From Stenomitos rutilans HA7619-LM2 (GTDB taxonomy: Bacteria; Cyanobacteriota; Cyanobacteriia; Leptolyngbyales; Leptolyngbyaceae), in the NCBI GenBank assembly GCA_019358945.1, contig JAHHIE010000027.1, positions 2,994 through 66,993 of the forward strand: DNA of 64,000 bases, given 5' to 3'. This document shows, piece after piece, positions 7,048 through 60,067 of this stretch (position 1 is the stretch's first letter; the number at the start of each line of letters is the position of its first letter). Position numbers and translations under genes: made by a program. The notes below the pieces were generated by a model that saw only the letters and a list, made by a program, of their open reading frames with translations, had not been told where the DNA came from and ran no database searches.

Positions 7048-7078
7048 GATGTGCAGAGCATTGAGGTTGCGTCTCTGA

Positions 7079-7293
7079 AACTTGCTGAAGAGCGATCGAG
7101 ACTCGTCAGTGAGAAGCCAAGACTCGTCCGAGAGTCGTCAACACTTGTGGGTGAGTATCAAAGACTCGTCCGAGAGTGATCAACACTTGTGAGTGAGTAG
7201 TAAAGACTCGTGGGAGAGCGATCAACACTCGTTAGCGAGTAGTAAAGACTCGTCGGAGAGCAGTAAAGACTCGTCAGTGAGTATCGAAGACTC
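7079..7293. repeat. Degenerate 21-bp tandem array (~10 units), consensus [G/C]ACT[C/T]GTNNNNGAGNNNNNAA
   Basis: Units start at 7100, 7121, 7142, 7163, 7184, 7205, 7226, 7247, 7268 and 7289 (e.g. GACTCGTCCGAGAGTGATCAA, CACTTGTGAGTGAGTAGTAAA). Confidence 0.92.
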
Positions 7294-7356
7294 AAGCCGA
7301 TCGTGGTTTTGATTGCGGCTGCAACGCGATCGCTCACCAGCGAAACTTAATACACC

Positions 7357-8013: not shown

Positions 8014-10854
8014 ATGCCAGCGATGACAGACGAAGAACTGCTTCAATTAATCAAACAAACTGCAGAGCAAGGGGTTGCTAATTTTGATCTCTCCTTCAAA
8101 AGGCTAACATCACTGCCGATGGAGATTGGCTGTTTACAGAATCTAGCTAAGCTGTCGATCAACCGCAACAAATTGAGTGCGTTACCGCCAGAAATCGGTC
8201 AATTGCGAAATCTAGCTACACTTGATCTTCAAGTCAACCTACTCAATGTCCTAATACCAGAAATTGGTGAATTACAAAATCTAACTACGCTTCGCCTTAA
8301 TAACAATCTACTAAACGAATTGCCGTCAGAAATTAGACAGTTGAGAAATTTGATATTTTTTGATCTTAGTCGTAACTCACTAAACACTCTACCACCAGCT
8401 ATTGGGCAGTTAGAGAGTCTCACTATACTTGATCTACATAACAATCAATTAAACAAACTACCTTTTCAAATTGGACAGTTAAAGAACCTGGCAACGTTTG
8501 ATCTTAGTCGCAATTTACTAAATACGCTGCCATCAACGATTGGACAGTTAGAGAATCTCACGTCACTTGACCTCAGTAATAATCAAATAAGCTTCCTTCC
8601 AGCAGAAATTGGGCAGTTGAAGAATCTCACGTCACTTGACCTCAGTAATAATCAAATAAGCTTCCTTCCAGCAGAAATTGGGCAGTTGAAGAACTTGGTA
8701 ACACTCAATCTTACCAATAATTTGTTGAATATTCTTCCACCAGAGATCGAGCGTCTACAGAACCTGCAAAGCCTTAGCATTAGCTACAACCAATTGCATG
8801 CACTGCCACCAGAAATCGGACAGTTGCGTAATCTGACTACATTGAATTTTAATGAAAACCCTTTAGAATCACCTCCACCAGAAATTTTAAAGAAAGATAT
8901 TCGAGCGATTAAAAGATATCTTAAGCAACTGAAGGTAGAAGGAAAAGATTTTCTCTACGAAGCTAAAATGCTCATACTTGGTGAACCAGGTGCTGGAAAG
9001 ACTTCTTTAGCTAAGAAAATTGAACATCCAGATTATTTGTTACAGGAAAATGAACGTTCCACCGAAGGTATCGAAGTTATTCAGTGGTGTTTTCTTCTGA
9101 TGAATGGCAAAGAGTTTCGGGTTAATATATGGGACTTTGGTGGTCAAGAGATCTACCATGCAACTCACCAATTTTTTCTCACTAAGCGCTCTCTCTATAC
9201 CTTAGTAGCTGATACTCGAAAAGAAGATACTGATTTTTACTACTGGCTTAATATAGTGGAATTATTGAGTGATAATAGTCCATTATTGATCATTAAAAAT
9301 GAGAAGCAGGATCGTAAACGAGAGATCAATGAGCGTCAACTACGTCAGTTCACAAACTTGAAAGAAACCCTAGCAACTAATCTCAAGACAAATCGTGGAA
9401 TACCTGAAATTCTCAACAAAATTCAGCATCACATTAGTACATTGCCGCATGTTGGTGCAGAGCTACCCAAAACGTGGGTCAAAGTACGAAAAACTTTGGA
9501 GCGCAAACGTCGCAACTACATCTCTTTAAAGGAGTATCTCGCAATTTGTCGTAAAAATAGTTTCATAGCAGAGGATGCTCTCCAACTTTGCGGATACCTA
9601 CACGATTTAGGCGTTTGCCTCCATTTCCAAGCAGACGAACTGTTAAGACGAATCGTAATTCTCAAACCAGCTTGGGGTACTGCTGCTGCCTACAAGGTAC
9701 TAGACAATCCCCAGGTAGTTCAAAACCTGGGCAGATTTACCCGTACCGACTTAGCCCATATCTGGCACGAAGACCAGTATGCCGACATGCGAGCAGAGTT
9801 GTTGAAGCTCATGATGAACTTCAAGCTGTGCTACGAAATTCCTGGCGCTCCCGGCACCTACATTGCGCCTCAACTCCTCACCGAGAACCAGCCCGACTAT
9901 ACCTGGGATGCCTCCAACAACCTGATGTTGCGCTATGAATACGAGTTCATGCCCAAAGGGATTCTCACTCGCTTCATTGTGGAGACCCATTCGCTCATTG
10001 ATTCCCAGTCCTATGTTTGGCGCAGCGGTGTCGTGCTCAAACAAGACCAGGCAAGAGCAGAAGTCATTGAACACTATCGCTATCACAAAGGCGAAATCTG
10101 GGTGCGGGTATCGGGCAAACGCAAGAAAGAGTTAATGGCTATTGTCCGGCACGAACTGAAGCAAATTCATGCTTCCTACGGCGATCGTCTTAGAAAAAGC
10201 GAACTTGTACCCTGCAATTGCTCCACCTGCAAAGATAGCCAAACGCCTCACTTCTACCGCCTTGAAGATCTCAACCGTCGCCTCGATAACAAGCGATACC
10301 AGGTTGAATGCGAGCAAAGCTACAAGTCTGTTGAAGTCCGCAGTCTAATTGATGAAGTGATTACCAGAAATTCTGACGACAACAAACCACTGTCCATGCC
10401 ACAACCCACTGTCCGCGATCAAGTTTTCATTAGCTATAGCCATAAAGATCAACAATGGCTGGAAGCACTACAGATTCACCTCAGGCCCATGATCCGCAAT
10501 CAAACGCTCAAACCCTGGGATGATACCCAAATCAAGCCCGGTGCCGAATGGCGCAAAGAAATTACCGCTGCACTCGCCGCTGCCAAAGTTGCAGTCTTGC
10601 TCGTCAGCCCTGACTTTCTCGCATCCGATTTCATTGACAAGAATGAACTACCACCCCTGCTTGATGCGGCAGAAAATGAAGGGCTAACAATTATCTGGAT
10701 ACCTATCAGAGCCAGCGCTTATAAAGTTACCGCGATCGAAAAGTACCAGTCTGCTCATCCTCCCAACCAGCCTTTAGCAAGATTGAACAATGACGATCGT
10801 GATCAAGCCTGGGTAGACATTTGTGAGAAAATTCAAGCTGCTGCTAACTCCTAA
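8014..10854 (+). CDS. Roco-family protein: ~11 LRRs + Roc GTPase + COR + C-terminal TIR domain
   Basis: 23-aa LRRs (LPxEIGQLxNL); GEPGAGKTS, STEGI, IWDFGGQ; COR region; VFISYSH...VSPDFLASDFI..NEL TIR motif. Confidence 0.92.
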   Translation: MPAMTDEELLQLIKQTAEQGVANFDLSFKRLTSLPMEIGCLQNLAKLSINRNKLSALPPEIGQLRNLATLDLQVNLLNVLIPEIGELQNLTTLRLNNNLLNELPSEIRQLRNLIFFDLSRNSLNTLPPAIGQLESLTILDLHNNQLNKLPFQIGQLKNLATFDLSRNLLNTLPSTIGQLENLTSLDLSNNQISFLPAEIGQLKNLTSLDLSNNQISFLPAEIGQLKNLVTLNLTNNLLNILPPEIERLQNLQSLSISYNQLHALPPEIGQLRNLTTLNFNENPLESPPPEILKKDIRAIKRYLKQLKVEGKDFLYEAKMLILGEPGAGKTSLAKKIEHPDYLLQENERSTEGIEVIQWCFLLMNGKEFRVNIWDFGGQEIYHATHQFFLTKRSLYTLVADTRKEDTDFYYWLNIVELLSDNSPLLIIKNEKQDRKREINERQLRQFTNLKETLATNLKTNRGIPEILNKIQHHISTLPHVGAELPKTWVKVRKTLERKRRNYISLKEYLAICRKNSFIAEDALQLCGYLHDLGVCLHFQADELLRRIVILKPAWGTAAAYKVLDNPQVVQNLGRFTRTDLAHIWHEDQYADMRAELLKLMMNFKLCYEIPGAPGTYIAPQLLTENQPDYTWDASNNLMLRYEYEFMPKGILTRFIVETHSLIDSQSYVWRSGVVLKQDQARAEVIEHYRYHKGEIWVRVSGKRKKELMAIVRHELKQIHASYGDRLRKSELVPCNCSTCKDSQTPHFYRLEDLNRRLDNKRYQVECEQSYKSVEVRSLIDEVITRNSDDNKPLSMPQPTVRDQVFISYSHKDQQWLEALQIHLRPMIRNQTLKPWDDTQIKPGAEWRKEITAALAAAKVAVLLVSPDFLASDFIDKNELPPLLDAAENEGLTIIWIPIRASAYKVTAIEKYQSAHPPNQPLARLNNDDRDQAWVDICEKIQAAANS
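8552..8689 (+). repeat. Perfect 69-bp tandem duplication of one LRR unit
   Basis: 8552-8620 is identical to 8621-8689 (AGAATCTCACGTCACTTGACCTCAGTAATAATC...). Confidence 0.92.
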
Positions 10855-10993
10855 CAATGGAACGATCGCCCTTGAGCCAATCATGCAGGGGCGATCGTTA
10901 ATAGCCGTTAAGGGCGATCGTCATACTGTGAAAGGGCGATCGCTATTCCATTTTGGTGGCGGCGATTGTTGAGGCGCGATCGCTTTATGTAAT

Positions 10994-11634: not shown

Positions 11635-12915
11635 GTGCTTGACCTGAAGCTAATCCGCGAAAAGCCCGACTTGGTGCGCGAGAAACTCAACGCTCGCAAT
11701 GGTATCTATGACCTTCAGCCGCTGTTGCAGTTAGACGAACAACGCCGATCGCTGGAGCAGGAGCGATCGCAGCTTCAGGCGCGGGGCAACGAAATCGGCA
11801 AACAGGTCGGGCAACAGATGAAAGCGGGCGTAAAGCCGGATGATCCAGCCCTACAGTTGCTCAAGGACGAAGGCAACCAGGTTAAAGCCAAATTGAGCGA
11901 TCTGGAACCCCAGGAAAAAGACCTGAAAGCGCAGATCGAAGCACTGTTGCTGACATTTCCAAATTTGCCTGGTGACACCACGCCGATCGGCAAAAACGAA
12001 ACCGAAAATGTGGAAGTGCGTCGCTGGGGCGATGAATATAAACCGCAGCAGGAAGGTATCTTGCCTCATTGGGAAATTGCCGAAAAACTTGGCATTCTTA
12101 ACACCGAACGGGCAACGAAACTGGCTCAAACCCGGTTTGTCGCGCTACTGGGTGCAGGTGCAGCCCTAGAGCGATCGCTGATTAGCTTTATGCTCGATCG
12201 CCAAACCGCCGCAGGCTACCTCGAAGTGCTGCCACCGCTTCTGGTCAATACTCAATCGCTGACGGCCACCGGGCAGTTACCCAAGTTTGCCGAAGAAAGC
12301 TTTCAGTGTAAAGATGATGACCTCTGGCTAATTCCTACAGCCGAAGTGCCCGTTACCAACCTTTACCGGGACGAAATTCTCACAGCCGATGATCTTCCCA
12401 TTCATCACTGTGCCTATACTCCGTGCTTTCGTCGTGAGGCTGGCAGCTATGGGCGCGATACGCGTGGACTTATTCGGCTACACCAATTCAACAAAGTGGA
12501 ATTGGTCAAACTTGTGCGCCCCGAAACCTCTGAGCAAGAGCATCAAACCCTGGTACAAAACGCAGAGGCTATTCTGCAAGCCCTAAAGTTGCCGTATCGC
12601 GTGGTTGAACTTTGCACAGGCGATTTAGGCTTTGGTGCGGCCAAATGCTACGACCTGGAAGTGTGGCTTCCTGCTGCCGGAACCTACCGCGAAATCTCAA
12701 GCTGCTCCAACTTTGGTGACTTCCAGGCGCGACGCGGCAACATTCGCTTTAAAGAAGCAGGCAAAAAGGGCACAGAGTTTGTCCATACGCTAAACGGCTC
12801 TGGTTTAGCCGTCGGTCGCACAATGGCAGCCCTTTTAGAGAACTATCAGCAGCCAGATGGCACTGTTAGCATTCCAGAGGTTTTGCAGCCGTTTTTGGGG
12901 CGATCGGTGCTGTAG
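11635..12915 (+). CDS. serS: Serine--tRNA ligase
   Basis: N-terminal coiled coil; [22 protein letters not shown] and [11 protein letters not shown] motifs. Confidence 0.98.
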
Positions 12916-12943
12916 AGAAGGCCGAGGGCAGGAGGCAGAAGGT

Positions 12944-13332
12944 AATCCTCTCAACTCGACTCTTTGACGTGTAAGCTTGACCGTTCAACCGTTCAACTTG
13001 GCTCTCCGAGTTCAAACCTCAATGCTTCGAGTTCAGTCCTCACGCTTTCAACCTCCAGACTCAACTTTCCGAGTTCCAAGCTCCATCTTTCGACCTCCAA
13101 GCTCGACCTTTCGAGTTCAGAGCTTCGTCTTCCGAGTTTTAAGCTCCATCTTTCAAGCTCCAAGCTCTACTTTCCGAGTTCAGAGCCTCACGCTCCGAGT
13201 TCAGAACGCCATCTTTCGCCCTCCGAACTTGACTGTTCAACCTCTGCACCCCATCTTTCAAGCTCTAAGCTCGACACCTCGATCGCCAAACTAGACACTC
13301 CAAAGTTAAAGCCTGCTTCCCGAACTCAAAGC
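12944..13332 (+). repeat. Degenerate 21-bp tandem array A (~18 units), consensus TCAAAGCTCCATCTTCCGAGT
   Basis: Period 21; reads as SKLHLPS-like heptads in the track ORF 12964-13374. Confidence 0.9.
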
Positions 13333-13340
13333 TTCATCCC

Positions 13341-14810
13341 TCACCCATCCGTTCCCTTCGTCACGTTTGCATGAGCACTACGCTCGACCATCTGGGTATA
13401 GACCGCTTTAGAAATAGCAGGCAGAATCTCGGAGTTCTGGCTGTAGGTGGGATCGGTGCCAAACACGGCAAGGATGTAAGCCACGCTGCCGTCTTTTGAT
13501 TCGATGAAGGCGACTTCGTGGCGGACTTTGGTGGTCATGCCCACTTTGGAGGCAAAGCGCACATCAGCAGGGAGGGGTTCGCCCAAAAAGCCCGCGATCG
13601 CATTATCTGCCTGCTTCTTCCACGATTCTGGATTCAGGTCTCGCGTGAGCAAGCCCATCATTTCCTGGCTGCGGCTGGCGGATACGGCTTTGCCCGCATA
13701 GATTTCGCTCATCAGCCGTGCGGCCTGATCGCTGGTGACCAGGCTCCGAATGGGCTGTTGCTGCTCGTCGAGCATCTGGAGTTCGCGTCCGTTGGGACCA
13801 TCGAGCTTGAGTGAGTAGATGGGGTAGTTTTTCTGGCTGATGCTGAGTCCTTCGTAGCCTGCTGCGCGAAAGAACTGGTTGATCCGCAAACGGTTTTTGA
13901 GCCAGGTCTCGTACTCTGTACCGCCAAGTGAATTGCCAGAAGTTGTTTGGGTAATGCGATCGAAAATGCGGCTGGCTGCATCGTTATCAGAATGAACGAT
14001 CATCGCGATTAAATCGGCATTCAGATTAGCATCGGGCTGCAAAATGCCTTGGTCTAGCTGCGCTTCGCAAACAGCGAGCCAAAAGAGCTTCACCACACTG
14101 GCAGGATAACGGGGTGTGTCTTGCTGATAGCCTGCGATCGTGTTGCCCTTAAGATCGATCAGCGTGATAGATAGTGGCTGCGTATCCAGGGATTTACTTG
14201 CTGCCAGCGCTACAGCACCATCCACGATCGCCTGTAGCTCCTCACTGCGCGGCATAGGGGCCTCGGGCTGAACATTGTAAGCTAACGTCTCAAACGTCTG
14301 CTTTTGCTCGGTCGAAGGGGGATGAATGACTGCCGCTGCCGATGAAGGTTGCAGATTAGGTGAAGAGGATGGCGTTTGAGAAACCTCAGGCTGCGGACGT
14401 AACCGTTGCACACCCCAAAAACCTGCCCCAGCCAAACCAAGCATGGCACTTGCCAAAAGGGCAATCCGCGTTAAGCGCAGCAGACGTGGTGGTAATCGTC
14501 GTGAGGCTGCTTTGCCACGCGATCGCCTCGCCTGCGGGGATTGAGCGCGTTTGAGGCCTGTCTTGCTGCTATCTACGCTCGGTCGCTCAACGGTTGAACC
14601 AATTGCAAATGATCGGGGTTCCCCATGCGATCGCTGAGCCGTTGTGGGTGGCCCTGCTAAGTGCCGTTTCAAGTGTGCCACTTGAGCGCGGAGAGAGGCC
14701 GTTTCAGCCTCCAATCTGCCAATGATGCGATCGGCTCTGGCAAGTTTTGCCTTAAGCTGGGCATTCTGCTGCTGAAACGACTCCGGTTTGTTTTTAAGTA
14801 AGAGGGGCAC
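13341..14810 (-). CDS. Class A beta-lactamase-like serine hydrolase with N-terminal coiled coil and TM anchor
   Basis: SVVK (SxxK), SDN and SKVG motifs; TM segment IALLASAMLGLAGAGFW. Confidence 0.8.
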   Translation of the reverse strand: MPLLLKNKPESFQQQNAQLKAKLARADRIIGRLEAETASLRAQVAHLKRHLAGPPTTAQRSHGEPRSFAIGSTVERPSVDSSKTGLKRAQSPQARRSRGKAASRRLPPRLLRLTRIALLASAMLGLAGAGFWGVQRLRPQPEVSQTPSSSPNLQPSSAAAVIHPPSTEQKQTFETLAYNVQPEAPMPRSEELQAIVDGAVALAASKSLDTQPLSITLIDLKGNTIAGYQQDTPRYPASVVKLFWLAVCEAQLDQGILQPDANLNADLIAMIVHSDNDAASRIFDRITQTTSGNSLGGTEYETWLKNRLRINQFFRAAGYEGLSISQKNYPIYSLKLDGPNGRELQMLDEQQQPIRSLVTSDQAARLMSEIYAGKAVSASRSQEMMGLLTRDLNPESWKKQADNAIAGFLGEPLPADVRFASKVGMTTKVRHEVAFIESKDGSVAYILAVFGTDPTYSQNSEILPAISKAVYTQMVERSAHANVTKGTDG

Positions 14811-16227: not shown

Positions 16228-16235
16228 AGGTTAAA

Positions 16236-16455
16236 GATGAGGGATGAGGGATGAAATTTTGAATGAACTTAGCGGTCAGCGCTCAGCTATCAGCTTTACT
16301 TTATGATCCTTGTTCTACTGCCTGTCTCTTTCATCCTTTCTCACCCCGTTCTCTGCTTGCCATCACTTACTTTTTCATCCCTCATCCCTTCAGTTTCATC
16401 CCTCCCCTCTCATCCCTCATTCCTCCCCTCTTATCCTTCATCCTTTAGCCTTTCC
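16236..16455. repeat. 7-mer (STRR-type) purine/pyrimidine tract
   Basis: (GATGAGG)n followed by complementary (TCATCCC)n blocks. Similar tracts at ~18200-18280, 19490-19620, 21360-21475, 27517-27615, 29030-29170, 32180-32355, 47330-47390, 51000-51083 and 59860-60065. Confidence 0.85.
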
Positions 16456-16457
16456 CC

Positions 16458-19384: not shown

Positions 19385-19626
19385 GGCGTTACCTGGAAAG
19401 TGCTACAGGTCTATTCTCGAAAAATTGCAGGGCAAGCACTATCGGTTTCTTGCGGTGTCATTCGGGAGCAGTATCTTGTACCAGTTATCAGTTTTGAGTT
19501 GGAAGAGAGGTGGGAGGTGTAAGAGCTTTGAATTTTCCCTACTCCCCACGCTCCATTCCCGCCGCTTCTCCTGCCCCCTCTGCCTCCCCTGCGCCTTGCC
19601 CCTGCACCCCAAACCTTGCCCTCGGT

Positions 19627-20046: not shown

Positions 20047-21015
20047 CTACTCTACTATTTGAATGCCAGACGGATTAAATTTTGCCAGCCAAAATTCCAG
20101 ATCGGTGTTGGCGATCGCTTGCTGTACTCCATCCTGTAAGGCTTCTGCCTGAGCCTGAGATTCTGCCAGCGCAAACACAGTGGGGCCAGAACCCGACATC
20201 ATCGTGCCGATCGGGTTGAGCCGCTGAAAGGCTTCTCGTAACTGCAACACCTGGGAATGTGCTGGCAACACCACTTTTTCTAAATCATTTCGCAACCGTT
20301 GACCAATTTTGGCGCTGTCTCGTTGGGCGATCGCGGCCATCATAGGGCTGGCGTGCACCTGCTGTCGGCGTTGCTCCAGGTCACCCCCACGACGTAAATA
20401 AGAGTCGCCAAACCATTGGCGGTAGGTAGTGTATGCCCACGCCGTCGAAACCGACAGACTGCGATACTTTGCCAGCACTACGTATAGGTCAGTCAACGCA
20501 GTTAACGCATCCAACTGTTCACCGCGTCCAGTCGCAAGGGCTGTGCCGCCCGCAATGCAAAACGGCACATCAGAGCCGAGCACTGCACCCAACTCCTGCA
20601 ACTCGTCACGGGTAAGACCCAGCTCCCACAGCAAATCTACCCCCACCAGCACCGCAGCAGCATTGCTCGACCCTCCCGCCAGCCCAGCCCCCACTGGAAT
20701 CTGCTTTTTGATCGTGATATCAACCCCACCGTAACGCGCAAAACAAGCGGGAAATTGCTTGCTCATCAAAGCTGCCGCTCGATAGGCCAAATTGGTCGCA
20801 TCATTCGGCACCTGGGGATGAGCGCAATGAACCCGAATGGCGTCCGTCCCGCTTGCCCGCACCTGAATGCGATCGGTCAAACTTACGCTTTGCAGCACCA
20901 TCACCATCTCGTGAAACCCAGAAGGCCGCGAATCGTCGCCCCCCGTCATGTGATCACCGAGGATTTCCAGATACAGGTTAATTTTGGCCGGAGCAAGAAG
21001 GGAGTAGGAGCGCAT
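20047..21015 (-). CDS. ispE: 4-diphosphocytidyl-2-C-methyl-D-erythritol kinase
   Basis: APAKINL, PVGAGLAGGSSNAA, GSDVPF and MSGSGPT motifs. Confidence 0.96.
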   Translation of the reverse strand: MRSYSLLAPAKINLYLEILGDHMTGGDDSRPSGFHEMVMVLQSVSLTDRIQVRASGTDAIRVHCAHPQVPNDATNLAYRAAALMSKQFPACFARYGGVDITIKKQIPVGAGLAGGSSNAAAVLVGVDLLWELGLTRDELQELGAVLGSDVPFCIAGGTALATGRGEQLDALTALTDLYVVLAKYRSLSVSTAWAYTTYRQWFGDSYLRRGGDLEQRRQQVHASPMMAAIAQRDSAKIGQRLRNDLEKVVLPAHSQVLQLREAFQRLNPIGTMMSGSGPTVFALAESQAQAEALQDGVQQAIANTDLEFWLAKFNPSGIQIVE

Positions 21016-21050
21016 GGGGAAGGGAGTGGGGAGTAGGGAGAGCAGTTTTG

Positions 21051-21357
21051 AGTTTTGAGTTTGAGAGGCCAGGGTTTGAACTCGAAGTGTCTAGTTTGAA
21101 GGTCGTGGTATCGAGTTTGGAACGCGGAAGATGGAGCCTGGAGGTCGAAAGGTCGAGCTTGAAGGTCGGAAGGTGAAGCTCTGAGCTCGCAAGATGAAGC
21201 TTGGAACGCGGAAGATGGAGCTTGGAGGTCGGAAGATGGAGCTTGGAGGTCGGAAGGTGAAGCTCTGAACGCGGAAGATGGAGCCTGGAACTCAAAAGAC
21301 GGAGCTTGGAGGTCGAAAGGTCGAGCTTGGAAGTCAAAAAGTCGAGTTTGAAGGATT
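21051..21357 (-). repeat. Degenerate 21-bp tandem array B (~14 units), same family as array A
   Basis: Minus strand reads TTCCAAGCTCCATCTTCCGAC-like units; leader and terminal units are homologous to array A. Confidence 0.9.
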
Positions 21358-21475
21358 CTTCTGCTCTCTACCCTCTGCTTTCTGCTTCATTTTTGAGCGA
21401 TCAGCCGTCAGCGGCCAGCGATTAGCTTTTAATTTTTACCCTACTCCCCACTCCCGCCCTTCTGCCTTCTACCTC

Positions 21476-22294
21476 CTACCCACTCCCCTGCAACTCATTG
21501 CTCAACGCAACCCATTGCTCGACGCTCAGGTCTTCGGCGCGGACTTGTGGGTTTACGTTTAATTGTTCCAGTAAGTGGGTGAGCCGATCGCCCTCGACGA
21601 GACTTTTCAAGTTGTTTCGCAACATTTTGCGCTTGCTGGCAAACCCAGCTTTGACGATCGTCTCCAGATGACGTGGGTTGTGGGCAGGGGTTGTGATAGG
21701 ACGTGGATGGAGACGAATGACGGCAGAATCAACTTTGGGCGGTGGCTGAAAGGCTTTGGCTGGGACATCGCAAATAAACTGGCACTCTGCGAGATACTGC
21801 ACCCGCACGGATAGCGCACCAAAATGGGTGGAACCGGGCTTGCTGCACAGGCGCAGGGCGACTTCTTTTTGCACGAGCAAGACGATCGCATCAAAGGGGT
21901 GGGGATTGGGGGCCGCGATCGTCCCCAATAGCTTCTCGATGATCGGGCCTGTAATGTTGTAGGGAATGTTGGCAACGACTTTATTAGGGTTTTGGAAGGC
22001 TGGAAACGGCACGAGTAGGGTATCAAGATCGAGTGTTAGGAAATCGCCCTGCAACAGCAGAAAGTGCTCGGTTTGACCCAGCTTTTGGGCGAGACGATCG
22101 CACAGATCGCGGTCAATTTCCACAGCTACTACGGCTTGGGCTAGCGGCAGCAATTGGCGGGTCAAAATGCCAGTACCGGGGCCAATTTCCAGGACACGAT
22201 CGTGCTCGTTCAACGTGGCGGCGTTCACGATACTATTGAGGGCTTTTTCGCTGCGAAGCCAATGTTGGGCAAACTTTTTACGCGGTTGGGGCAC
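21476..22294 (-). CDS. rsmA: 16S rRNA adenine dimethyltransferase KsgA
   Basis: KKFAQHWL, LEIGPGTG, VVANIPYNIT; likely GTG start at 22294. Confidence 0.96.
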   Translation of the reverse strand: MPQPRKKFAQHWLRSEKALNSIVNAATLNEHDRVLEIGPGTGILTRQLLPLAQAVVAVEIDRDLCDRLAQKLGQTEHFLLLQGDFLTLDLDTLLVPFPAFQNPNKVVANIPYNITGPIIEKLLGTIAAPNPHPFDAIVLLVQKEVALRLCSKPGSTHFGALSVRVQYLAECQFICDVPAKAFQPPPKVDSAVIRLHPRPITTPAHNPRHLETIVKAGFASKRKMLRNNLKSLVEGDRLTHLLEQLNVNPQVRAEDLSVEQWVALSNELQGSG

Positions 22295-22298
22295 AGGG

Positions 22299-23327
22299 TT
22301 ACTCCGGTAAACCCACAACGCCGCCGTTCCCAGCAATCACCTCGCCGATCGCAAAAGCAGCGATATTCTGATCGGCAAAGTACTGCATCGTGGTCGTGAC
22401 CTGAACGGCTGGCACCAATACCACAAAGCCAATGCCCATGTTGAAGGTGTGGAACATCGATCGGGGAGAAACATTCCCCTCAGCCGCTAACCACTGAAAA
22501 ACGGGCTGTACGTTCCAGGCAGACGATTCGACGGCGATTGATTGGCCTGCACCTAAACAGCGTGGCAGATTTTCTGGCAGTCCGCCTCCCGTGATATGCG
22601 CCATGCCGTGAATGGGAATGCCTTGCTTGAGCGCACCCAGAATTGGCTTTACGTAGATTTGCGTGGGTGTGAGCAATACGTCACCCAGGGTTTTGCCATC
22701 GAAGATCGCAGGACGATCGCCCCAGTCGTAGCCACGATCGCCCACAATCTTTCGCACCAAACTGAAGCCATTGCTGTGAACGCCTTGACTGGCAAGCCCG
22801 ATCGCCACATCGCCCACTTGCACCTGCGATCCATCCAGAAGGGCGCTTTTCTCCCCAATGCCAACGCAGAATCCGGCTAAATCGTATTCACCCGACTGGT
22901 AGAACCCAGGCATTTCTGCTGTTTCGCCCCCCAGCAGCGCACAGCCTGCCTGCTTACAGCCATCTGTAATGCCCGTTACTACCTGCGCCAGTTGCTCTGA
23001 GTTGAGTTTACCTGTGGCTAAATAATCCAAAAAAAACAGCGGCTCTGCGCCACAGGTCAACACATCGTTTACACACATAGCGACGAGATCAATGCCAACG
23101 GTGTCGTGGCGATCGAGGGTGTGGGCTAACTTAAGCTTTGTTCCCACTCCATCGGTACCGGACACCAATACAGGCTCCCGATACCCCACCGGAAGCTGAA
23201 ACAGTCCACTAAAGCCACCAACGTTGCCCAAAACTTCTGGTCGCGTAGTGCTGTCTACCATGCTGCGGATACGTTGCACAAACGCCCGTCCTGCTTCTAC
23301 GTCTACACCCGCTTCTCGATAATCCAT
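22299..23327 (-). CDS. purM: Phosphoribosylformylglycinamidine cyclo-ligase
   Basis: [38 protein letters not shown] and FNMGIG motifs. Confidence 0.98.
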
Positions 23328-27516: not shown

Positions 27517-27616
27517 AGAGGGGAGAGGAGAGGAGGCAGAAGTCAGGAGCCAGAATTTTCCTTGCTTCCCTGCTCCCCTTGCTCCCCCTCTACCCCAACT
27601 CCCGACTCCTGACTCC

Positions 27617-28966: not shown

Positions 28967-29186
28967 CGGTAAAGTTAAACTCCTCAACGTTTCCTAATAG
29001 TTTAGGGGCTATGGACGATCGGTGTAAGTCAGAAGGTAGAAGGTAGGGGGCAGGGAGGGGGAAATAGGGAAAATTCAAAACTCTTACACCTCTCACCTCT
29101 CACCTCTCTCTTCCAACTCAAAACTCTCTAGCTTGTCGGCGCAAAGCGCTACTCAAAACTCAAAACTTCTACGCTGACTGCTGCGT

Positions 29187-32178: not shown

Positions 32179-32357
32179 TTGTTGGTAAAAGGCAGAGGGC
32201 AGAAGGCAGAAGGCAGAGGGAGCAAGGGGTAGAGGAGGAAAGGGTTTTGAGCAGTTAGCGGTCAGCTATCAGTGGTCAACGGTTAGCGATTAGCTTTCAA
32301 TCTTTAACCTACTCCCTACTCCCAATTTAGCCTTTAGCCTTCATCCTTTATCCTTTC

Positions 32358-32942
32358 CTACAGCACAATCTCCTCTCCTTTCTCTGTGAACTGCACCGAT
32401 TTGATTCGCCACTGGACATTATCAATGAGCGTTTTGCGGATGCCGCCGAAGAGGGCGAGCTGTTCGCAGCTTGAGAGCGATCGAAACTGGCGTTTGGCAT
32501 TGGCAGGAAGACGAAGATCGATGATCGCCCGGTTCCCTTCGCGGCTGATCCGATAGCCTGCAATGGTAAAGTCGCCGCTGTCGGTTTCTTCTAGCACCTT
32601 GGCGATCGCGCCTTCAAGCGATTGGTTTGCCGCGATCGTCACTTTTTCAGGGGTTAGCGCAGCACAACGATTATCCACCTTGTAGAGATTGATTGTCGTC
32701 ATTTTGACAGAAGGTGTCGGTTTGATGGGCCCTAGAGATTGGGCGATCGCCGAGGGTGTTGTTGTAGGACTACTACCTGCAGAAGGGACACTCGCAGAAG
32801 GGACACTCGCAGAAGGGACACTCGCAGAAGGGACACTCGCAGAAGGGGTGCTTTCCGGGGGTGGCGCAACGCCACAACTGGTCAAACTAAGTAGGAGCAG
32901 GCCTACCATGCCTGTGATGAGGGAAGAAAGGGAGGCATTCAT
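32358..32942 (-). CDS. GerMN-like domain lipoprotein with (SASVP)n linker
   Basis: Lipobox LTSC; CEQLALFGGIRKTLIDNVQWRIKSVQFTEKGEEI. Confidence 0.72.
   Translation of the reverse strand: MNASLSSLITGMVGLLLLSLTSCGVAPPPESTPSASVPSASVPSASVPSASVPSAGSSPTTTPSAIAQSLGPIKPTPSVKMTTINLYKVDNRCAALTPEKVTIAANQSLEGAIAKVLEETDSGDFTIAGYRISREGNRAIIDLRLPANAKRQFRSLSSCEQLALFGGIRKTLIDNVQWRIKSVQFTEKGEEIVL
32779..32847. repeat. 15-bp perfect tandem repeat GCAGAAGGGACACTC x4.6
   Basis: Units at 32779, 32794, 32809 and 32824, partial at 32839; encodes a PSASV linker. Confidence 0.93.
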
Positions 32943-42449: not shown

Positions 42450-43082
42450 ATGAACGTGCGTCGAATCTTAATCGCAACAGCTATTCCCGTACTCATGGGT
42501 TCGTTTGGGTTAGCCGCTTCCAACCAAGTCAATGCCGCTAATTTAAAGACTCAAGTTGCTCAAGCATCGCAACCATCCAATCAACCGCCCGAAGGTCAAC
42601 GCAGACCGCCCCGTATCGACTTTGCCGCTGCTGCTGCCAAGCTCGGCGTGACGGAACAGCAGTTAAAAGATGCTTTGGGTGTGCCATCGCAGCCACCGAG
42701 CGATCGCAGTCAGCGTCCTCCTCGTCCTGATTTTGCTGCCGCTGCCGCGAAACTAGGCACAACCGAAGCCAAACTCAAGCAAGCGTTAGGAGTGCCTGCT
42801 AAGTCGCCTGGTCAACAGGGCCGCACGGGCGATCGCAGCCAACGTCCCCCTGGCCCTGATTTTGCTGCCGCTGCGGCCAAGCTCGGCGTTACAGAGCAAC
42901 AGCTAAAGGACGCTCTAGGTGTACCCGCTCAACCACCCAGCGATCCTAGTCAACGCCCCCCTCGCCCTGATTTTGCTGCCGCTGCGGCCAAGCTGGGTGT
43001 AACGGAACAACAGCTAAAGGATGCTCTGGGTGTACCTGCTCAACCACCCAGCGAGAACGGCGCACCACCTCCTAACTCCTAA
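42450..43082 (+). CDS. Secreted protein with four ~37-aa repeats (RPxxxDFAAAAAKLGxTExxLKxALGVP)
   Basis: Sec-type signal peptide; four near-identical repeats separated by Pro/Gln/Ser linkers. Confidence 0.88.
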   Translation: MNVRRILIATAIPVLMGSFGLAASNQVNAANLKTQVAQASQPSNQPPEGQRRPPRIDFAAAAAKLGVTEQQLKDALGVPSQPPSDRSQRPPRPDFAAAAAKLGTTEAKLKQALGVPAKSPGQQGRTGDRSQRPPGPDFAAAAAKLGVTEQQLKDALGVPAQPPSDPSQRPPRPDFAAAAAKLGVTEQQLKDALGVPAQPPSENGAPPPNS

Positions 43083-44173: not shown

Positions 44174-45574
44174 ATGACACTTGATTCCCCCCAAGCTATT
44201 CCATTCAATCCGTTGCCCAACCGTATCATGAGACAGCGGTGGACTAAATGGTTGATGGGCCTACTGCTCCTCAGCTCCCTGTCAGGTGGTGGCTATTTGG
44301 TTTATCGCCAAACCATTGCTTCCACCAGTCAGGCAGCAAGGGGCAAACAAATCACGGTTCCTGTCTCGCGTGAAACGATTCCCATCACGATCGCCGCCAA
44401 TGGTACGGTAGAAGCCAAACAATCCACCAACGTCAGCCCCAAAAGTTCTGGACGGCTCAAAAGTTTGATCGTCGATGAAGGCGACGTAGTGCAAGCAGGG
44501 CGACCCCTGGCCTACATGGATGACTCAGACCTGCAAGGGCAACTGATTCAAGCACAGGGTTCGCTGGCATCGGCTCAAGCAAACTTGCAGAAGCTCGAAG
44601 CTGGCAACCGCCCTGAAGATATTGCTCAGGCAGAGTCTACCGTGAGAAGCGCTCAAGTTACATTGAGTCAGTCACAGGCAGATCTTCAACGGTATGAGCA
44701 ACTGTATCAGTCAGGAGCCATTTCTGCCCAATCGGTGAGCCAATACCGCACCACGCGAGACACCAATCAGGCAGCAGTAGACAAAGCGCAACAGGCACTC
44801 AAGCTATTGCAAGTTGGCAATCGCACAGAAGATATTGCCCAGGCACGCGCTCAGGTGACGCAAGCAGAAGGCAGTTTGAAAACCATCCAAACGCAGATTG
44901 AAGATGCCGTTATCCGTGCTCCCTTTAGCGGTATTGTGACGGCAAAATATGCTGACCCCGGTGATTTCGTCACCCCCACCACCTCTGGAAGTTCGGTTTC
45001 ATCTGCCACTTCGTCGTCTATTTTGTCGCTGGCCTCCACCTATCAAGTTTCCGCAGATGTAGCTGAAACCGATATTGGCAAGATTAAGCTGGGGCAAACT
45101 GTCACCATCACCGCCGATGCCTATCCCGATCAAACCTTTCAGGGCAAAGTGTCTCAGGTGGCGGCAGAGGCAACCGTCACCTCGAACGTCACGAGCTTTA
45201 AGGTGAAAGTGGCGCTTACCGATCCTAAAAAGCTGTTGCATCCCGGTATGAATGTGGATGCCAAATTTGATGCAGGTAAGTTGGATAACGTTCTGACCGT
45301 ACCGACCGTCGCGATCGCCCGTCAGCAAAACGGCACCGCTGTCCGCGTACTCACCCCAGACGGGAAAGCCAAATTTATACCCGTTACCACTGGAGCCACC
45401 ATCAACAACAAGACCGAAGTCCGCTCTGGTTTGCAAGGCAATGAAAAAGTCTTAGTCAGCGCACCAGCCGGAGCTTCGGGGACAGGCGCTTCTAATCGAA
45501 GCGGTAATGCCAGTGGAAGGAGCGGGGCAGGGGGAATGAGCGGTGCTGGGATGGGAGGACCGCCGCCGTTTTAG
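44174..45574 (+). CDS. Periplasmic adaptor / membrane fusion protein (MacA/HlyD type)
   Basis: TM anchor, lipoyl halves (VSPKSSGRL..LIVDEGD; IRAPFSGIV), long alpha hairpin, Gly-rich tail. Confidence 0.92.
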   Translation: MTLDSPQAIPFNPLPNRIMRQRWTKWLMGLLLLSSLSGGGYLVYRQTIASTSQAARGKQITVPVSRETIPITIAANGTVEAKQSTNVSPKSSGRLKSLIVDEGDVVQAGRPLAYMDDSDLQGQLIQAQGSLASAQANLQKLEAGNRPEDIAQAESTVRSAQVTLSQSQADLQRYEQLYQSGAISAQSVSQYRTTRDTNQAAVDKAQQALKLLQVGNRTEDIAQARAQVTQAEGSLKTIQTQIEDAVIRAPFSGIVTAKYADPGDFVTPTTSGSSVSSATSSSILSLASTYQVSADVAETDIGKIKLGQTVTITADAYPDQTFQGKVSQVAAEATVTSNVTSFKVKVALTDPKKLLHPGMNVDAKFDAGKLDNVLTVPTVAIARQQNGTAVRVLTPDGKAKFIPVTTGATINNKTEVRSGLQGNEKVLVSAPAGASGTGASNRSGNASGRSGAGGMSGAGMGGPPPF

Positions 45575-45632
45575 ATGAAGACAGAGGCGGGGAGGCAGAG
45601 GAAGCGGGGGAGGCAGAAGGCAGAAGGTTAAG

Positions 45633-45975
45633 TTGACGCTCTAAGCTGCATCTTTCGACCCCTAGACTTGCCACTCCGAGTTCAAAGCTCCACTCTCCGG
45701 GTTCAAAGCTCCATCTTTCGACCTTTAAGCTCTACCTTCCAAGTTCAAAGCTCCATAGTCCAAGTTCAAAGCTCCACTCTCCGAGTTCAAAGCTCCACTC
45801 TCCGAGTTCAAAGCTCGACGTTTTGACTCTTAAACTTAATCATCCGAGTTCAAAGCTTGATCTTTCAAGCTCAAAGCCTCATCTTTCGAGTTCAGAGCTA
45901 AATCTTTTAAGTTCAGATCTCAACTTTTAACCTTAAAGGTTCAACATTTTAACCTTAAAGCTCCATCTTCCAACC
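45633..45975 (+). repeat. Degenerate 21-bp tandem array C (~16 units), same family as A and B
   Basis: Repeated TCAAAGCTCCACTCTCCGAGT units, including two exact adjacent copies at ~45766-45807. Confidence 0.9.
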
Positions 45976-46023
45976 TCACTCCTCATTCCTCATCCCTCAT
46001 CCCTTCTCCACCGAGGTTTCGGC

Positions 46024-47328
46024 ATGAAAACACACGATCGCAAACCACCCCTCAAACAAGCATCCATTCTGATGCAGCGGAGTACATCAATCTCGTTCGG
46101 CGAAATTCTGACGATGGCGATCGAGGCACTCTGGAGCAACAAACTTCGCACGGTGCTCACCATGCTGGGCATTGTTATTGGCATTACGGCGGTCATTGCG
46201 GTGACGGCGATCGGTCAGGGTACGCAGAAATCGACGGAGCAACGCTTGCAATCCCTTGGTACTGACATTTTGCAAGTGCAATCGGGTGCAGCCAGAAGTG
46301 GATCGGTGCAGCAGGGTGCGGGAAGTGCCACCACCCTAACGTTGGAAGATGCTCAGGCGATCGGGCAGCAGGTGATTGGCGTTGATCGTGTCTCGGCGTT
46401 CTTGCAGCAAAACGCGCAGGTGGTTTACGACCAAAACAACAACTCCATGACCATCATCGGCACGGATGTAAATTATCCCGATGTGCGAAATACACACCCA
46501 CAAACGGGCCGATTTTTCACGCAAGAAGAAGTGGATGCTGCCTCGCCTGTAGCAGTTCTGGGGCCTACTGCTCGTGATGAGTTGTTGGGGACAGGCAGCA
46601 CGGCTGAAGGTGCCCAAATCCGCATTCAAGGGCAAACCTATGATGTCATCGGCGTGATGGAAACGAAAGGTTCACAAGGCCCCCAAAGCCCAGATGAACA
46701 AATTTATCTGCCACTCACCAATATGTCTGCTCGCCTGGTGGGAAACAATGCGGTGAAAGGCATTGCCATTCGGGGCGTTTACGTCAAAGTCAAAAGTCAG
46801 GATCAGCTCGATGCAGCACAGTATCAAATTACAAATCTTCTGCGGGTACGGCACGGCATTTTTCCAGAGAAAGGCAATAAAGATGATTTTCGGATTATCA
46901 ATTCAGCCGATGTGATTGAAACGTTGACCAGCACCTCGAAGCTGCTTACGGTGATGGTTGTGGCGATCGCGGGTATATCCCTCATCGTTGGCGGCATTGG
47001 CATCGCGAATATCATGCTGGTGTCTGTGGTGGAACGCACGCGAGAGATTGGAGTTCGTAAAGCGATCGGTGCCACCAGCATCGCCGTTCTGAGCCAGTTC
47101 CTAGCCGAAGCGGTCGTGATTGCCGCATTGGGTGGCGTGATTGGCATTGGTCTGGGTGTGGCGATCGCCTTTGCTGCTGCCAATCTCTTCAGCTTCCCAT
47201 TCGTCTTATCAATCTGGGCAATCCTCCTTGGTTTTGGCTTAACCTTCGCGATCGGGCTGGTGGCAGGCGTGATTCCTGCACGGAATGCGGCGCAGTTAGA
47301 CCCGATTACGGCGTTGAGGAGCGATTGA
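46024..47328 (+). CDS. MacB/FtsX-type ABC exporter permease
   Basis: LRTVLTMLGIVIG, large periplasmic domain, VSVVERTREIGVRKAIGA, AAQLDPITALR. Confidence 0.93.
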   Translation: MKTHDRKPPLKQASILMQRSTSISFGEILTMAIEALWSNKLRTVLTMLGIVIGITAVIAVTAIGQGTQKSTEQRLQSLGTDILQVQSGAARSGSVQQGAGSATTLTLEDAQAIGQQVIGVDRVSAFLQQNAQVVYDQNNNSMTIIGTDVNYPDVRNTHPQTGRFFTQEEVDAASPVAVLGPTARDELLGTGSTAEGAQIRIQGQTYDVIGVMETKGSQGPQSPDEQIYLPLTNMSARLVGNNAVKGIAIRGVYVKVKSQDQLDAAQYQITNLLRVRHGIFPEKGNKDDFRIINSADVIETLTSTSKLLTVMVVAIAGISLIVGGIGIANIMLVSVVERTREIGVRKAIGATSIAVLSQFLAEAVVIAALGGVIGIGLGVAIAFAAANLFSFPFVLSIWAILLGFGLTFAIGLVAGVIPARNAAQLDPITALRSD

Positions 47329-47459
47329 GCTAGGGAGTAGGGAGTAGGGAAGCAGAGGGGGCAGGGGAAGCAGGGGAGGCGGTTGAGGAAGTGGGCTAGA
47401 GGTTTCGATATAGCGAGAGGTTTGTCGCTAGGGTTGATTGAAATTTGCATCATCGACCC

Positions 47460-47840
47460 ATGCCGAAACTGAAAAGGTTTGTAATTCCCCTGCTGCTTGC
47501 GTCTCCCTTAGTTTTGCTTCTCACTCACTGTAGTGTTGGCAACCCACTACCAATCCTAATTGGGAAAAAGATTTGGCTCAATAGAGACGACAGTCTTTTG
47601 AGAAATGAGGTGAGCCGCATGATTCCAATCGGTAGTTCCATCATGAATGCGAAATGGCTCTTGGAATTTAATGGATTTCAATGTGACTACAAGAAGGCTT
47701 CTGATCCGACAGATGGTTATCTTTCCTGTGAGCAAACACAATCTTACCTGGTATGCGCCATAACCTATAAAACTGCTGTTATGTCCGTCAAAAATGCAGT
47801 TTCACGTATTGAGTCATCAACTGGAAACTACTGTCTCTAG
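47460..47840 (+). CDS. Small Cys-containing putative lipoprotein
   Basis: MPKLKRFVIPLLLASPLVLLLTHC lipobox-like; four further Cys; lower GC than neighbours. Confidence 0.6.
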   Translation: MPKLKRFVIPLLLASPLVLLLTHCSVGNPLPILIGKKIWLNRDDSLLRNEVSRMIPIGSSIMNAKWLLEFNGFQCDYKKASDPTDGYLSCEQTQSYLVCAITYKTAVMSVKNAVSRIESSTGNYCL

Positions 47841-48005
47841 CTTCCCTACAGCACAAAACCTTTTGTCCGCATAGGTTACGCTCACCTTTTCTGATGTGTC
47901 AGAACAGCTTTACCCATCCTACAACTGCTTCCCCTGCCTTCTCCGCTCCCCCTGCTTCCCCTGCTCTCCTCATGTGCAAACTACTCATTAAAAGGATTAC
48001 TCAAC

Positions 48006-49148: not shown

Positions 49149-49205
49149 AGTCTCAAACGTAAAGTGACTCTATCTTATCGATTTCTACAGAAAAGCTGGG
49201 GATTA

Positions 49206-49305
49206 TACCGATTTAAAGAATGACGGCTACAGATCAATCGGTGGGTAGGGGCAAGGCATTGCCTTGCCCCTACAAGATGTGTCGCATTTTCAATTCAAAT
49301 TGGTA
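49206..49305 (+). mobile_element. 100-bp MITE, second copy, target duplication TTA
   Basis: TTA at 49203-49205 and 49306-49308; nearly identical to 5778-5877. Confidence 0.9.
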
Positions 49306-49398
49306 TTAGAGCGTTGATTTTTCAGTTGTGCCACTGAACCAGAGAGGTTTGAATTCCTCCCTCTGCTTCCTCCGCTCCCCCTGCCTCCCCAGCCCTTC

Positions 49399-59855: not shown

Positions 59856-60067
59856 GGCAAGAAAGAAGGCTGAAGGCTAAAAAGCTGACCGCTGTCCGCT
59901 CAAACCCTAAAGGTAGAAGGCAAGAAGGTTGTTGGTTTTGAGTTTTTAGAAGGATTCAGGAACAGTTCATGCACTAGCAACCAACAACTGGTTCAACTCA
60001 AAACTCAAAACTCAAAACTTTCATCCCTCACGCCTCTCCCCCACTCCTCCCCCCACTCTCCATCCCT

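Follow-up and report, generated by a model that had tools for sequence, protein, structure and literature searches.

Intergenic arrays of a 21-nucleotide unit in Stenomitos rutilans as a probable higher-order form of the cyanobacterial heptamer repeats

The heptanucleotide tandem repeats of cyanobacteria, STRR, were reportedly described by Mazel et al. in 1990. Cyanobacterial intergenic DNA is enriched in heptamer repeats, which lie just downstream of open reading frames (ORFs); polymerase slippage has been put forward as their origin (PMC4692102, PMC4679880). The same class includes the long heptamer simple-sequence repeats (SSRs) of Mrazek et al. 2007, as these are summarised in PMC4679880 and PMC4692102. 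G-rich heptamer repeats are on record too: Nostoc PCC 7120 has GGGGA(T/C)T and Xanthomonas has GGGAATC (PMC4692102). Here we analyse a 64,000-nucleotide (nt) stretch of Stenomitos rutilans HA7619-LM2 (contig JAHHIE010000027.1, positions 2,994 to 66,993; the window), which holds three arrays of a 21-nt unit, A, B and C (Table 1). We interpret these arrays as the 3 x 7 = 21-nt form of the known intergenic heptamer class, and on balance we think it probable that they are a non-coding, higher-order heptanucleotide satellite, grown by slippage and unequal recombination within inert transcribed spacer. Like STRR and long heptamer SSRs, the arrays follow a 7-nt lattice, lie in intergenic DNA close behind an upstream ORF (about 30 nt after its stop codon for A, 119 nt for B and 60 nt for C), occur in a filamentous cyanobacterium, the group in which such repeats are enriched, and differ in length and sequence between close relatives; slippage is the origin proposed for both. 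They differ from those repeats in having a 21-nt unit of three heptamers, a length of 300-380 nt, a degenerate sequence and higher-order periods, and their heptamers match none of STRR1-3, GGGGA(T/C)T and TAACTGA. We found no description of the 21-nt family in the searchable literature, where the unit sequence matched primers only. An earlier annotation made from the letters alone (the first-pass annotation) would have withdrawn its idea of a dispersed element with defined ends if the family belonged to a described repeat class; this is partly the case, the arrays being a higher-order form of one. The purine tracts that frame the arrays resemble GGGGA(T/C)T and GGGAATC, being G-rich heptamers on the coding strand just after a stop codon, but this likeness concerns the flanks only, as the 21-nt arrays themselves are G-poor on the sense strand.

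Arrays were detected by stacking the sequence in 21-nt rows, by consensus match, by weight matrix and with Tandem Repeats Finder (TRF). The consensus TCAAAGCTCCATCTTCCGAGT has 10 sites at three or fewer mismatches in the window against none in 100 dinucleotide shuffles, and the strong matches within any one array share a single phase. A weight matrix of the unit gives 45 matches, one of them outside the arrays, where shuffled windows give 1-6, and TRF reports A, B and C independently. The three arrays with a shared consensus proposed by the first-pass annotation are thus borne out by every approach. Row stacking of A-C shows the units to be contiguous, with no spacers between them, so that these are not CRISPR arrays. 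The 39-nt leaders beginning at 12944 (+) in A and 21357 (-) in B are identical at 31 of 39 positions and the 12-mer AAACTAGACACT occurs at 13288 (+) in A and 21097 (-) in B, both as annotated. The leader consists of the first two degenerate units plus AATCC; in register, the identity of A and B here (32/42) is only about 1.5 standard deviations above the A-B mean and is still the best of its row.

The 21-nt unit is composed of three related heptamers, TCAAAGC, TCCATCT and TCCGAGT, with the general form T-C-n-R-A-n-Y, and matches to the consensus recur at 7-nt offsets. Information content per position spans 0.56-1.35 bits when positions are taken modulo 7 versus 0.80-0.99 bits modulo 3; because the modulo-7 variation exceeds the modulo-3 variation, the constraint is heptameric and not codon-like. 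The 7-nt sub-period is therefore clear, yet the three heptamers differ and the true period is 21 nt. Beyond the unit, the arrays display the longer periods, homogeneous centre and decayed edges of a higher-order-repeat satellite. TRF returns a different higher-order period for each array (Table 1), identical units are spaced 4 and 7 units apart in B, and two neighbouring units are identical in C, while central units match the consensus at 16-20 of 21 positions and edge units at 10-13. Degenerate edges around a consensus-like centre are what unequal crossing-over is expected to leave in any tandem array. Mean unit identity is 55%, 66% and 62% within A, B and C and barely lower between arrays (58-62%). 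Positions 20-21 vary as a pair, reading either GT or CC (Fisher P=1e-4), and this choice is tied to the base at position 3 of the following unit (P=7e-5), so the variation is not independent point mutation and the arrays are mosaics of a few junction types, with GAGT followed by TCA or GACC followed by TCC across the unit boundary. This dispersed family of mosaics is, as had been suggested, not a simple microsatellite. The suggestion that the arrays have defined ends is not supported in the sense of a mobile element. In A and B the first two units (32 versus at most 27 of 42) and the penultimate two units (31 versus at most 24 of 42) are mutually best row matches; C lacks these ends, no target duplication or associated gene accompanies them, and the interiors of the arrays are not colinear. 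The 7-nt sub-period escaped the first-pass annotation, as did a second 21/42-nt array at 7099-7293. The latter, which sits in the spacer 7048-7356 between convergent genes, comprises about 9 units (AGACTCG TCnGnGA GTnnTnA) with a 42-nt higher-order period; since it is unrelated to A-C, the genome carries 21-nt arrays of more than one sequence family.

All three arrays fill the middle of a spacer frame with a purine tract on one side and a pyrimidine tract on the other, and they continue the 7-nt lattice of these flanks, which consists of purine heptamers (GGCAGAA type) 5' of the array and of (TCAAAAC)n and pyrimidine heptamers (TCATCCC, CCCACTC) 3' of it, (TCAAAAC)n being ACTCAAA in another phase. 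The same order, namely stop codon, purine tract, optional GGTCAGC-type heptamers, ACTCAAA, pyrimidine tract and start codon, recurs in the majority of the window's tandem and convergent spacers. Given this shared polar order, in convergent spacers a purine tract trails each gene on its own strand. Further examples of the polar architecture lie at 16228-16457, 19385-19626, 27517-27616, 28988-29186, 32179-32357, 47329-48005, 49149-49398 and 59856-60067; the spacer 27517-27616 is a purine tract facing a pyrimidine tract and nothing else. The earlier identification of the upstream genes as serS, rsmA and an adaptor gene is confirmed, and a purine tract does precede the array in all three 5' frames. 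The arrays were also said to sit just past a stop codon in the sense of transcription. Their distance from the stops, 30-119 nt, agrees with this, but A lies between convergent genes and is sense for serS only.

Table 1. Arrays, flanking genes and spacer frames in the window
Feature	Position	Strand	Remarks
Array A	12949-13326	+	18 in-register 21-nt units, 378 nt; centre 13012-13221 nearest consensus; TRF period 63 nt
Array B	21059-21352	-	14 in-register units, 294 nt; TRF period 84 nt at 86% match
Array C	45640-45975	+	16 units, 336 nt; last three degenerate; one small indel near 45934; TRF period 105 nt
serS	11635-12915	+	upstream of array A
beta-lactamase2-like gene	13341-14810	-	convergent with serS, other side of array A
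rsmA	21476-22336	-	upstream of array B
ispE	20047-21015	-	downstream of array B
HlyD-type adaptor gene	44174-45574	+	upstream of array C
MacB-type permease gene	46024-47328	+	downstream of array C
5' frame of A: purine tract AGAAGGCCGAGGGCAGGAGGCAGAAGG + TAATCC	12916-12948	+	directly after serS stop
3' frame of A: pyrimidine heptamers (TCATCCC TCACCCA ...)	13327-13360	+	overlaps 3' end of convergent beta-lactamase2-like gene
5' frame of B	21353-21475	-	after rsmA stop; purine/G-rich tract, GCTGACG-type heptamers, second purine tract ending AGAATCC
GGGCGGGAGTGGGGAGTAGGG (reverse complement of 21439-21459)	within 5' frame of B	-	purine/G-rich
3' frame of B: (TCAAAAC)2 in 7-nt register, then pyrimidine tract CCCTACTCCCCACTCCCTTCCCC	21016-21058	-	abuts ispE start codon
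5' frame of C: purine tract GGAGGCAGAGGAAGCGGGGGAGGCAGAAGGCAGAAGG	45575-45639	+	after HlyD-type adaptor stop codon
3' frame of C: TCACTCC TCATTCC TCATCCC TCATCCC	45976-46023	+	in register with C, reaches permease start codon

How widely is the 21-nt unit distributed? We scanned one genome per prokaryotic species with a two-unit skeleton pattern, followed by TRF on the matches and inspection of record titles; this is a scan and no census, it gave at least 120 matches, and some of the conservation seen in them is due to the skeleton pattern itself. The family is carried by at least 16 other cyanobacterial assemblies. Among the matches listed, at least 18 loci hold true 21/42/63/84-nt arrays in which the three heptamers differ; all of these come from cyanobacteria, the carriers being Oscillatoria, Elainellaceae, Calothrix, several Nostoc, Anabaena, Roholtiella, Tildeniella, Stenomitos and Iphinoe. 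About 100 further loci among these matches (Halomonas, Streptomyces, Acidobacteriota and others) are pure 7-nt repeats such as AGCTTCG and GGCTCCG, and a single Dysgonamonadaceae locus with an unrelated 21-mer is a doubtful exception. Family members have the core TCCGAGT-TCnrAGC in common, while the middle heptamer varies by lineage; a 4-bp CGAG/CTCG hairpin is present once per unit in some species and absent from the window consensus. In Tildeniella (L069) and Stenomitos (L103) the array stands in the familiar order of purine tract, array, TCAAAAC and pyrimidine tract. Although the window and Stenomitos frigidus ULC029 agree at only 53% of serS four-fold sites, array B and the array of the latter genome (L103:5091-5420) have an exact 31-mer in common, TTCCAAGCTCGACCTTTCGACCTCCAAGCTC; between arrays inside the window the longest exact match is 19 nt. 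With gene orientation taken from crude ORF calls at the loci of other genomes, about 5-7 arrays across species are sense and 3 antisense to the flanking ORFs, and one more, in two Nostoc assemblies, lies within an ORF. The orientation bias raised by the first-pass annotation is therefore seen in Leptolyngbya-like genomes, where the sense strand is the pyrimidine-rich one in all five arrays (A, B, C, L069 and L103), and is mixed across the cyanobacteria. No arrays were detected in 479 kb of other, related cyanobacterial DNA. None were detected in viral contigs or cyanobacterial plasmids either, and we reject carriage by phages or plasmids on the latter result.

One Nostoc member of the family varies in length. 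Contigs of lichen metatranscriptomes (runs X8, X10 and X12) span the intergenic array L060:1431-1710, and relative to the genome they show differences of exactly -21 nt and -126 nt, or one and six units. These variants are direct evidence of unit-wise length change in the Nostoc array, the kind of length variation that characterises the heptamer class, and it is in this member only that we observed it. The contigs also suggest that the array is co-transcribed, with DNA carry-over in the libraries possible. At the Stenomitos locus, soil metatranscriptomes cover the downstream gene and the generic ACTCAAA/pyrimidine tract only, leaving the array uncovered.

The first-pass annotation recommended a search for empty orthologous sites, and such sites were found for all three arrays. 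SerS is 96% identical to that of 'Lyngbya sp. HA4199-MV5', 92% to that of Leptolyngbya sp. BL-A-14 and 91% to that of Stenomitos frigidus, and spacers were compared with those of the closest relatives found at each site, namely L204 (SerS 96%), L202 and L203 (permease 97% and 86%) and L122-L125 (IspE 81-92%). In L204 the site of array A is a 140-nt spacer made of a purine tract, TTCAAACC and a pyrimidine tract, and A occupies the exact place of a single TCAAACC heptamer. At the site of array B, the rsmA-ispE spacer of L123-L125 (IspE 81-88%) measures 150-200 nt and contains heptamer tracts without a 21-nt array; the same holds upstream of ispE in L122 (IspE 92%), where a different gene precedes it, and the pyrimidine tract of the 3' frame of B is conserved in L122 and L125. 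At the site of array C, the spacer between the adaptor and permease genes measures about 137 nt in L202 and 27 nt in L203, again with no array. Purine and pyrimidine tracts, together with TCAAACC or ACTCAAA, are retained in the array-less spacers. Are these empty sites a record of recent insertion? Four-fold degenerate sites of the window and its nearest relatives are 59-65% identical, and as this neutral divergence of 35-41% is about that of the units within an array, the empty sites are no proof of it and are also compatible with growth in situ or with loss: an array that originated on the spot shortly after divergence from these relatives could look as it does today. In assembled contigs of the one 'algae metagenome' DNA run that contains the window organism, alignment to array B recovered about 14 copies of the flanking heptamer tract, the aligner being blind to arrays only 60-75% alike.

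The absence of A, B and C from the orthologous spacers invites another explanation, that a dispersed element spreads between spacers by block-wise copying, by a transposition-like route, by retro-copying or by targeted gene conversion, with the inverted purine/pyrimidine tracts as its ends. We regard this as unlikely, although several observations agree with it: the matching ends of A and B, units as alike between arrays as within them, the 31-mer common to B and the Stenomitos array, and a perfect 17-nt inverted pair (21022-21038 and 21439-21455) that brackets the spacer of B inside a 38-nt pair with 74% complementarity. The left arm of this inverted repeat on the minus strand, GGGCGGGAGTGGGGAGTAGGG, carries a G-quadruplex-type motif. 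The divergence at four-fold sites is, however, large enough for birth and decay in situ; C lacks the ends of A and B, and neither the colinear interior nor the common higher-order period of a copied block is found. Neither row stacking nor the relatives' spacers reveal a target-site duplication flanking the arrays, no transposase or reverse transcriptase lies nearby, and no gene family recurs near the arrays, so that a co-occurring family, which the first-pass annotation had proposed to look for, does not emerge. That annotation saw no target duplication, terminal inverted repeat or associated gene. The first and last of these absences stand; inverted repeats do bracket the arrays, but they are generic. 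Purine and pyrimidine tracts pair about equally well in every combination, and the right arm of the B repeat is a conserved sequence of the ispE 5' untranslated region (5'-UTR), shared with relatives in which both the left arm and the array are missing, so it is ancestral and the tracts are not the terminal inverted repeats of a miniature inverted-repeat transposable element (MITE). The arrays are like cyanobacterial MITEs in being dispersed, absent at orthologous sites and bracketed by inverted sequences; they are unlike them in lacking a target duplication, unit-length copies and a colinear body (378, 294 and 336 nt), and in that the inverted tracts predate the arrays. The lack of copies in viral contigs, in cyanobacterial plasmids and in the 479 kb of related DNA also speaks against a spreading block.

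A functional role for the repeat deserves equal attention, and we rate it about as unlikely as copying in blocks. The arrays would then be cis-acting, either as a phased DNA scaffold (21 bp corresponding to two helical turns) or as an unstructured, pyrimidine-rich platform in operon RNA, and, placed between the two tracts, would modulate the stability, processing or coupling of the mRNAs of the flanking genes. This explanation draws on the core that is conserved across cyanobacterial orders, on the near restriction of true 21-nt arrays to cyanobacteria among the matches listed and on a strict 21-nt register despite many substitutions; conversely, the middle heptamer varies freely between species, much of the apparent conservation is imposed by the search pattern, and the arrays are dispensable at all three sites in close relatives. 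Several properties of the RNA also speak for it. No sigma-70-type promoter or intrinsic terminator is present on the sense strand of any of the three array spacers, and as nothing of the kind parts them from their neighbours, B and C are probably transcribed together with the adjacent genes. Array RNA of the sense strand contains little G (13-15%) and forms weak folds, at -0.17 to -0.20 kcal/mol per nt; this strand has 0-1 ATG and no GGAG, GAGG or AGGA, in comparison with 4-7 ATG and 9-17 such motifs on the antisense strand. Avoidance of ATG and Shine-Dalgarno motifs as the cause of array orientation was considered and given up: across species 7 arrays fit and 3 fail, which is not significant. 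The idea that the C-rich, G-poor array RNA is a Rho-utilisation site was likewise rejected, as cyanobacteria are not known to possess Rho. The RNA-derived contigs spanning the Nostoc array favour a transcript-borne function, but such contigs can contain DNA, and the mixed orientation across species tells against it. In minimum-free-energy folds of all three spacers a long-range purine/pyrimidine stem closes the array, as a cis-acting platform might. Whole-spacer folding z-scores are nonetheless weak (-0.7 to -1.9), those of the arrays alone run from -3.9 to +0.4 with no consistent strand, and in the relative L125 the pyrimidine tract ahead of ispE is retained but a purine tract complementary to it is missing, so the stem is not conserved. 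A closing hairpin specific to each spacer was dropped, as non-cognate purine/pyrimidine pairs bind as well as cognate ones. Arrays A-C have no Rfam match at the gathering threshold. The comparison with plasmid iterons and other phased protein-binding repeats, which also are direct repeats of about 21 bp or two helical turns, is limited by the 14-18 degenerate copies per array, by three arrays within 64 kb, by the lack of a nearby replication gene and by the lack of any match in cyanobacterial plasmids. A more specific proposal, and in our estimation a less probable one still, is that the unit with its TCCGAGT-TCnrAGC core serves as the recognition module of a conserved cyanobacterial factor; the arrays would be phased DNA or operon-RNA platforms whose register is kept by selection and which spread between spacers and genomes.

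The notion that the arrays encode small repetitive proteins, or form a reservoir of SKLHLPS-type heptad modules, we consider very improbable. Its appeal lies in the stop-free frames that run through A (136 aa, 12964-13374, +) and B (119 aa, 20978-21337, -). Several frames are open, however, merely because the unit has few stop-prone triplets, and the two ORFs start at TTG, lack a Shine-Dalgarno-like motif and overlap neighbouring genes. Neither has a Pfam match, a protein search returned no homologue of the array-B ORF, and relatives lack the arrays; array C has no start codon and stops in every frame, and conservation, as described above, tracks the heptamer and not the codon. The SKLHLPS coding put forward in the first-pass annotation thus finds no backing in the window. 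The ORFs in A and B are likely false gene predictions, and so is a 171-aa call at the locus of a relative that has no array (L202:1344-1859, -). This call has no Pfam match and overlaps the adaptor gene on the opposite strand. Heptads are translated elsewhere: in two Nostoc lichen symbionts (L041:1181-6118, +; L048:1403-5125, -) the family lies in frame inside a hybrid histidine kinase, where it is the other strand that is read, as a linker of about 85 residues with NSEVQAQ-type heptads between HATPase_c and Response_reg. A 21-nt unit preserves the reading frame, its length being divisible by 3, and the repeat can therefore persist within genes as a linker of heptads; only in these kinase copies is it a protein-coding heptad repeat.

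Taking these observations together, we propose a model in which arrays A, B and C arose as a satellite within the heptamer spacers. A heptamer tract of the TCAAACC or TCAAAAC type would have diverged into a three-heptamer unit, which replication slippage and unequal recombination would then have amplified and resized. Recombination through the heptamer flanks that the spacers have in common may have swapped variants of the unit from one spacer to another, and such exchange would account both for the mosaic interiors and for the similar ends of A and B. The array would be transcribed with its neighbours and, G-poor, weakly folding and devoid of ATG or Shine-Dalgarno-like motifs, would be tolerated as filler between the purine and pyrimidine tracts. 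The model assumes no dedicated mobility machinery and no essential function. It recalls the higher-order-repeat satellites of eukaryotes, such as alpha satellite, in which monomers are grouped, centres are homogenised, edges diverge and a 'library' of monomers is shared. The bacterial arrays likewise possess higher-order periods, a homogeneous centre, decayed edges and a variant 'library' that extends across arrays and species, but they are only about 0.3 kb long, intergenic, and probably transcribed within operons; the likeness is one of evolutionary mode and implies no common descent.

Several observations weigh against a neutral satellite. No indel interrupts some 300-380 nt of units that are only 55-66% identical, which is hard to square with neutral decay. 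Both ends are common to A and B, and the sense strand is uniformly pyrimidine-rich in the Leptolyngbya-like arrays. The core, conserved from Nostocales to Leptolyngbya-like genera, and the 31-mer exceed the conservation expected of such a satellite, unless some heptamers are prone to expansion or are exchanged horizontally. From sequence comparison, the conserved core and the Stenomitos 31-mer leave a functional role possible, and together with the missing indels and the uniform orientation in Leptolyngbya-like genomes they keep both block-wise spread and a cis-acting role alive beside the satellite model that we prefer.

Repeats of other kinds are frequent in the window. The HIP1 sequence GCGATCGC occurs 69 times in 64 kb versus about 1 expected, and the 139-nt spacer 10855-10993 holds five copies of GGGCGATCG. 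Two inverted 9-mer arrays, GGGAAGCAG and CTGCTTCCC at 47347-47394 and 47925-47964, flank a small ORF of 131 aa (47445-47840). Inside genes, 69/138-nt repeats occupy 8330-8693 of a 946-aa ORF (8014-10854), a perfect 15-nt repeat of 4.6 copies lies at 32779-32847 in the ORF 32358-32942 (-), and a 111-nt unit is present twice at 42829-43054 in the ORF 42450-43082. The MacB-type permease downstream of array C is 84-86% identical to many Nostoc proteins and about 72% to that of Leptolyngbya sp. FACHB-261; judged by these identities, the ABC exporter operon to which it belongs may have been horizontally transferred.

What do the 21-nt arrays mean for the genomes that carry them? Heptamer repeats, to which no function has been assigned in 35 years, make up a visible share of the intergenic DNA of filamentous cyanobacteria. 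The arrays indicate that such repeats can mature into 21-nt higher-order forms with a core shared from Nostoc to Leptolyngbya-like genera, and that these forms hold a fixed place in a polar spacer, after the stop codon and purine tract and before ACTCAAA, the pyrimidine tract and the start codon. They constitute a testable system in which neutral products of slippage can be set against cis-acting elements of operon transcripts. On the practical side, they break short-read assemblies and create false ORF calls. If the arrays are satellites only, they are a modest addition to the catalogue of bacterial repeats; if the unit were instead a recognition module, they would represent a new class of bacterial cis-acting repeat and not a junk satellite.

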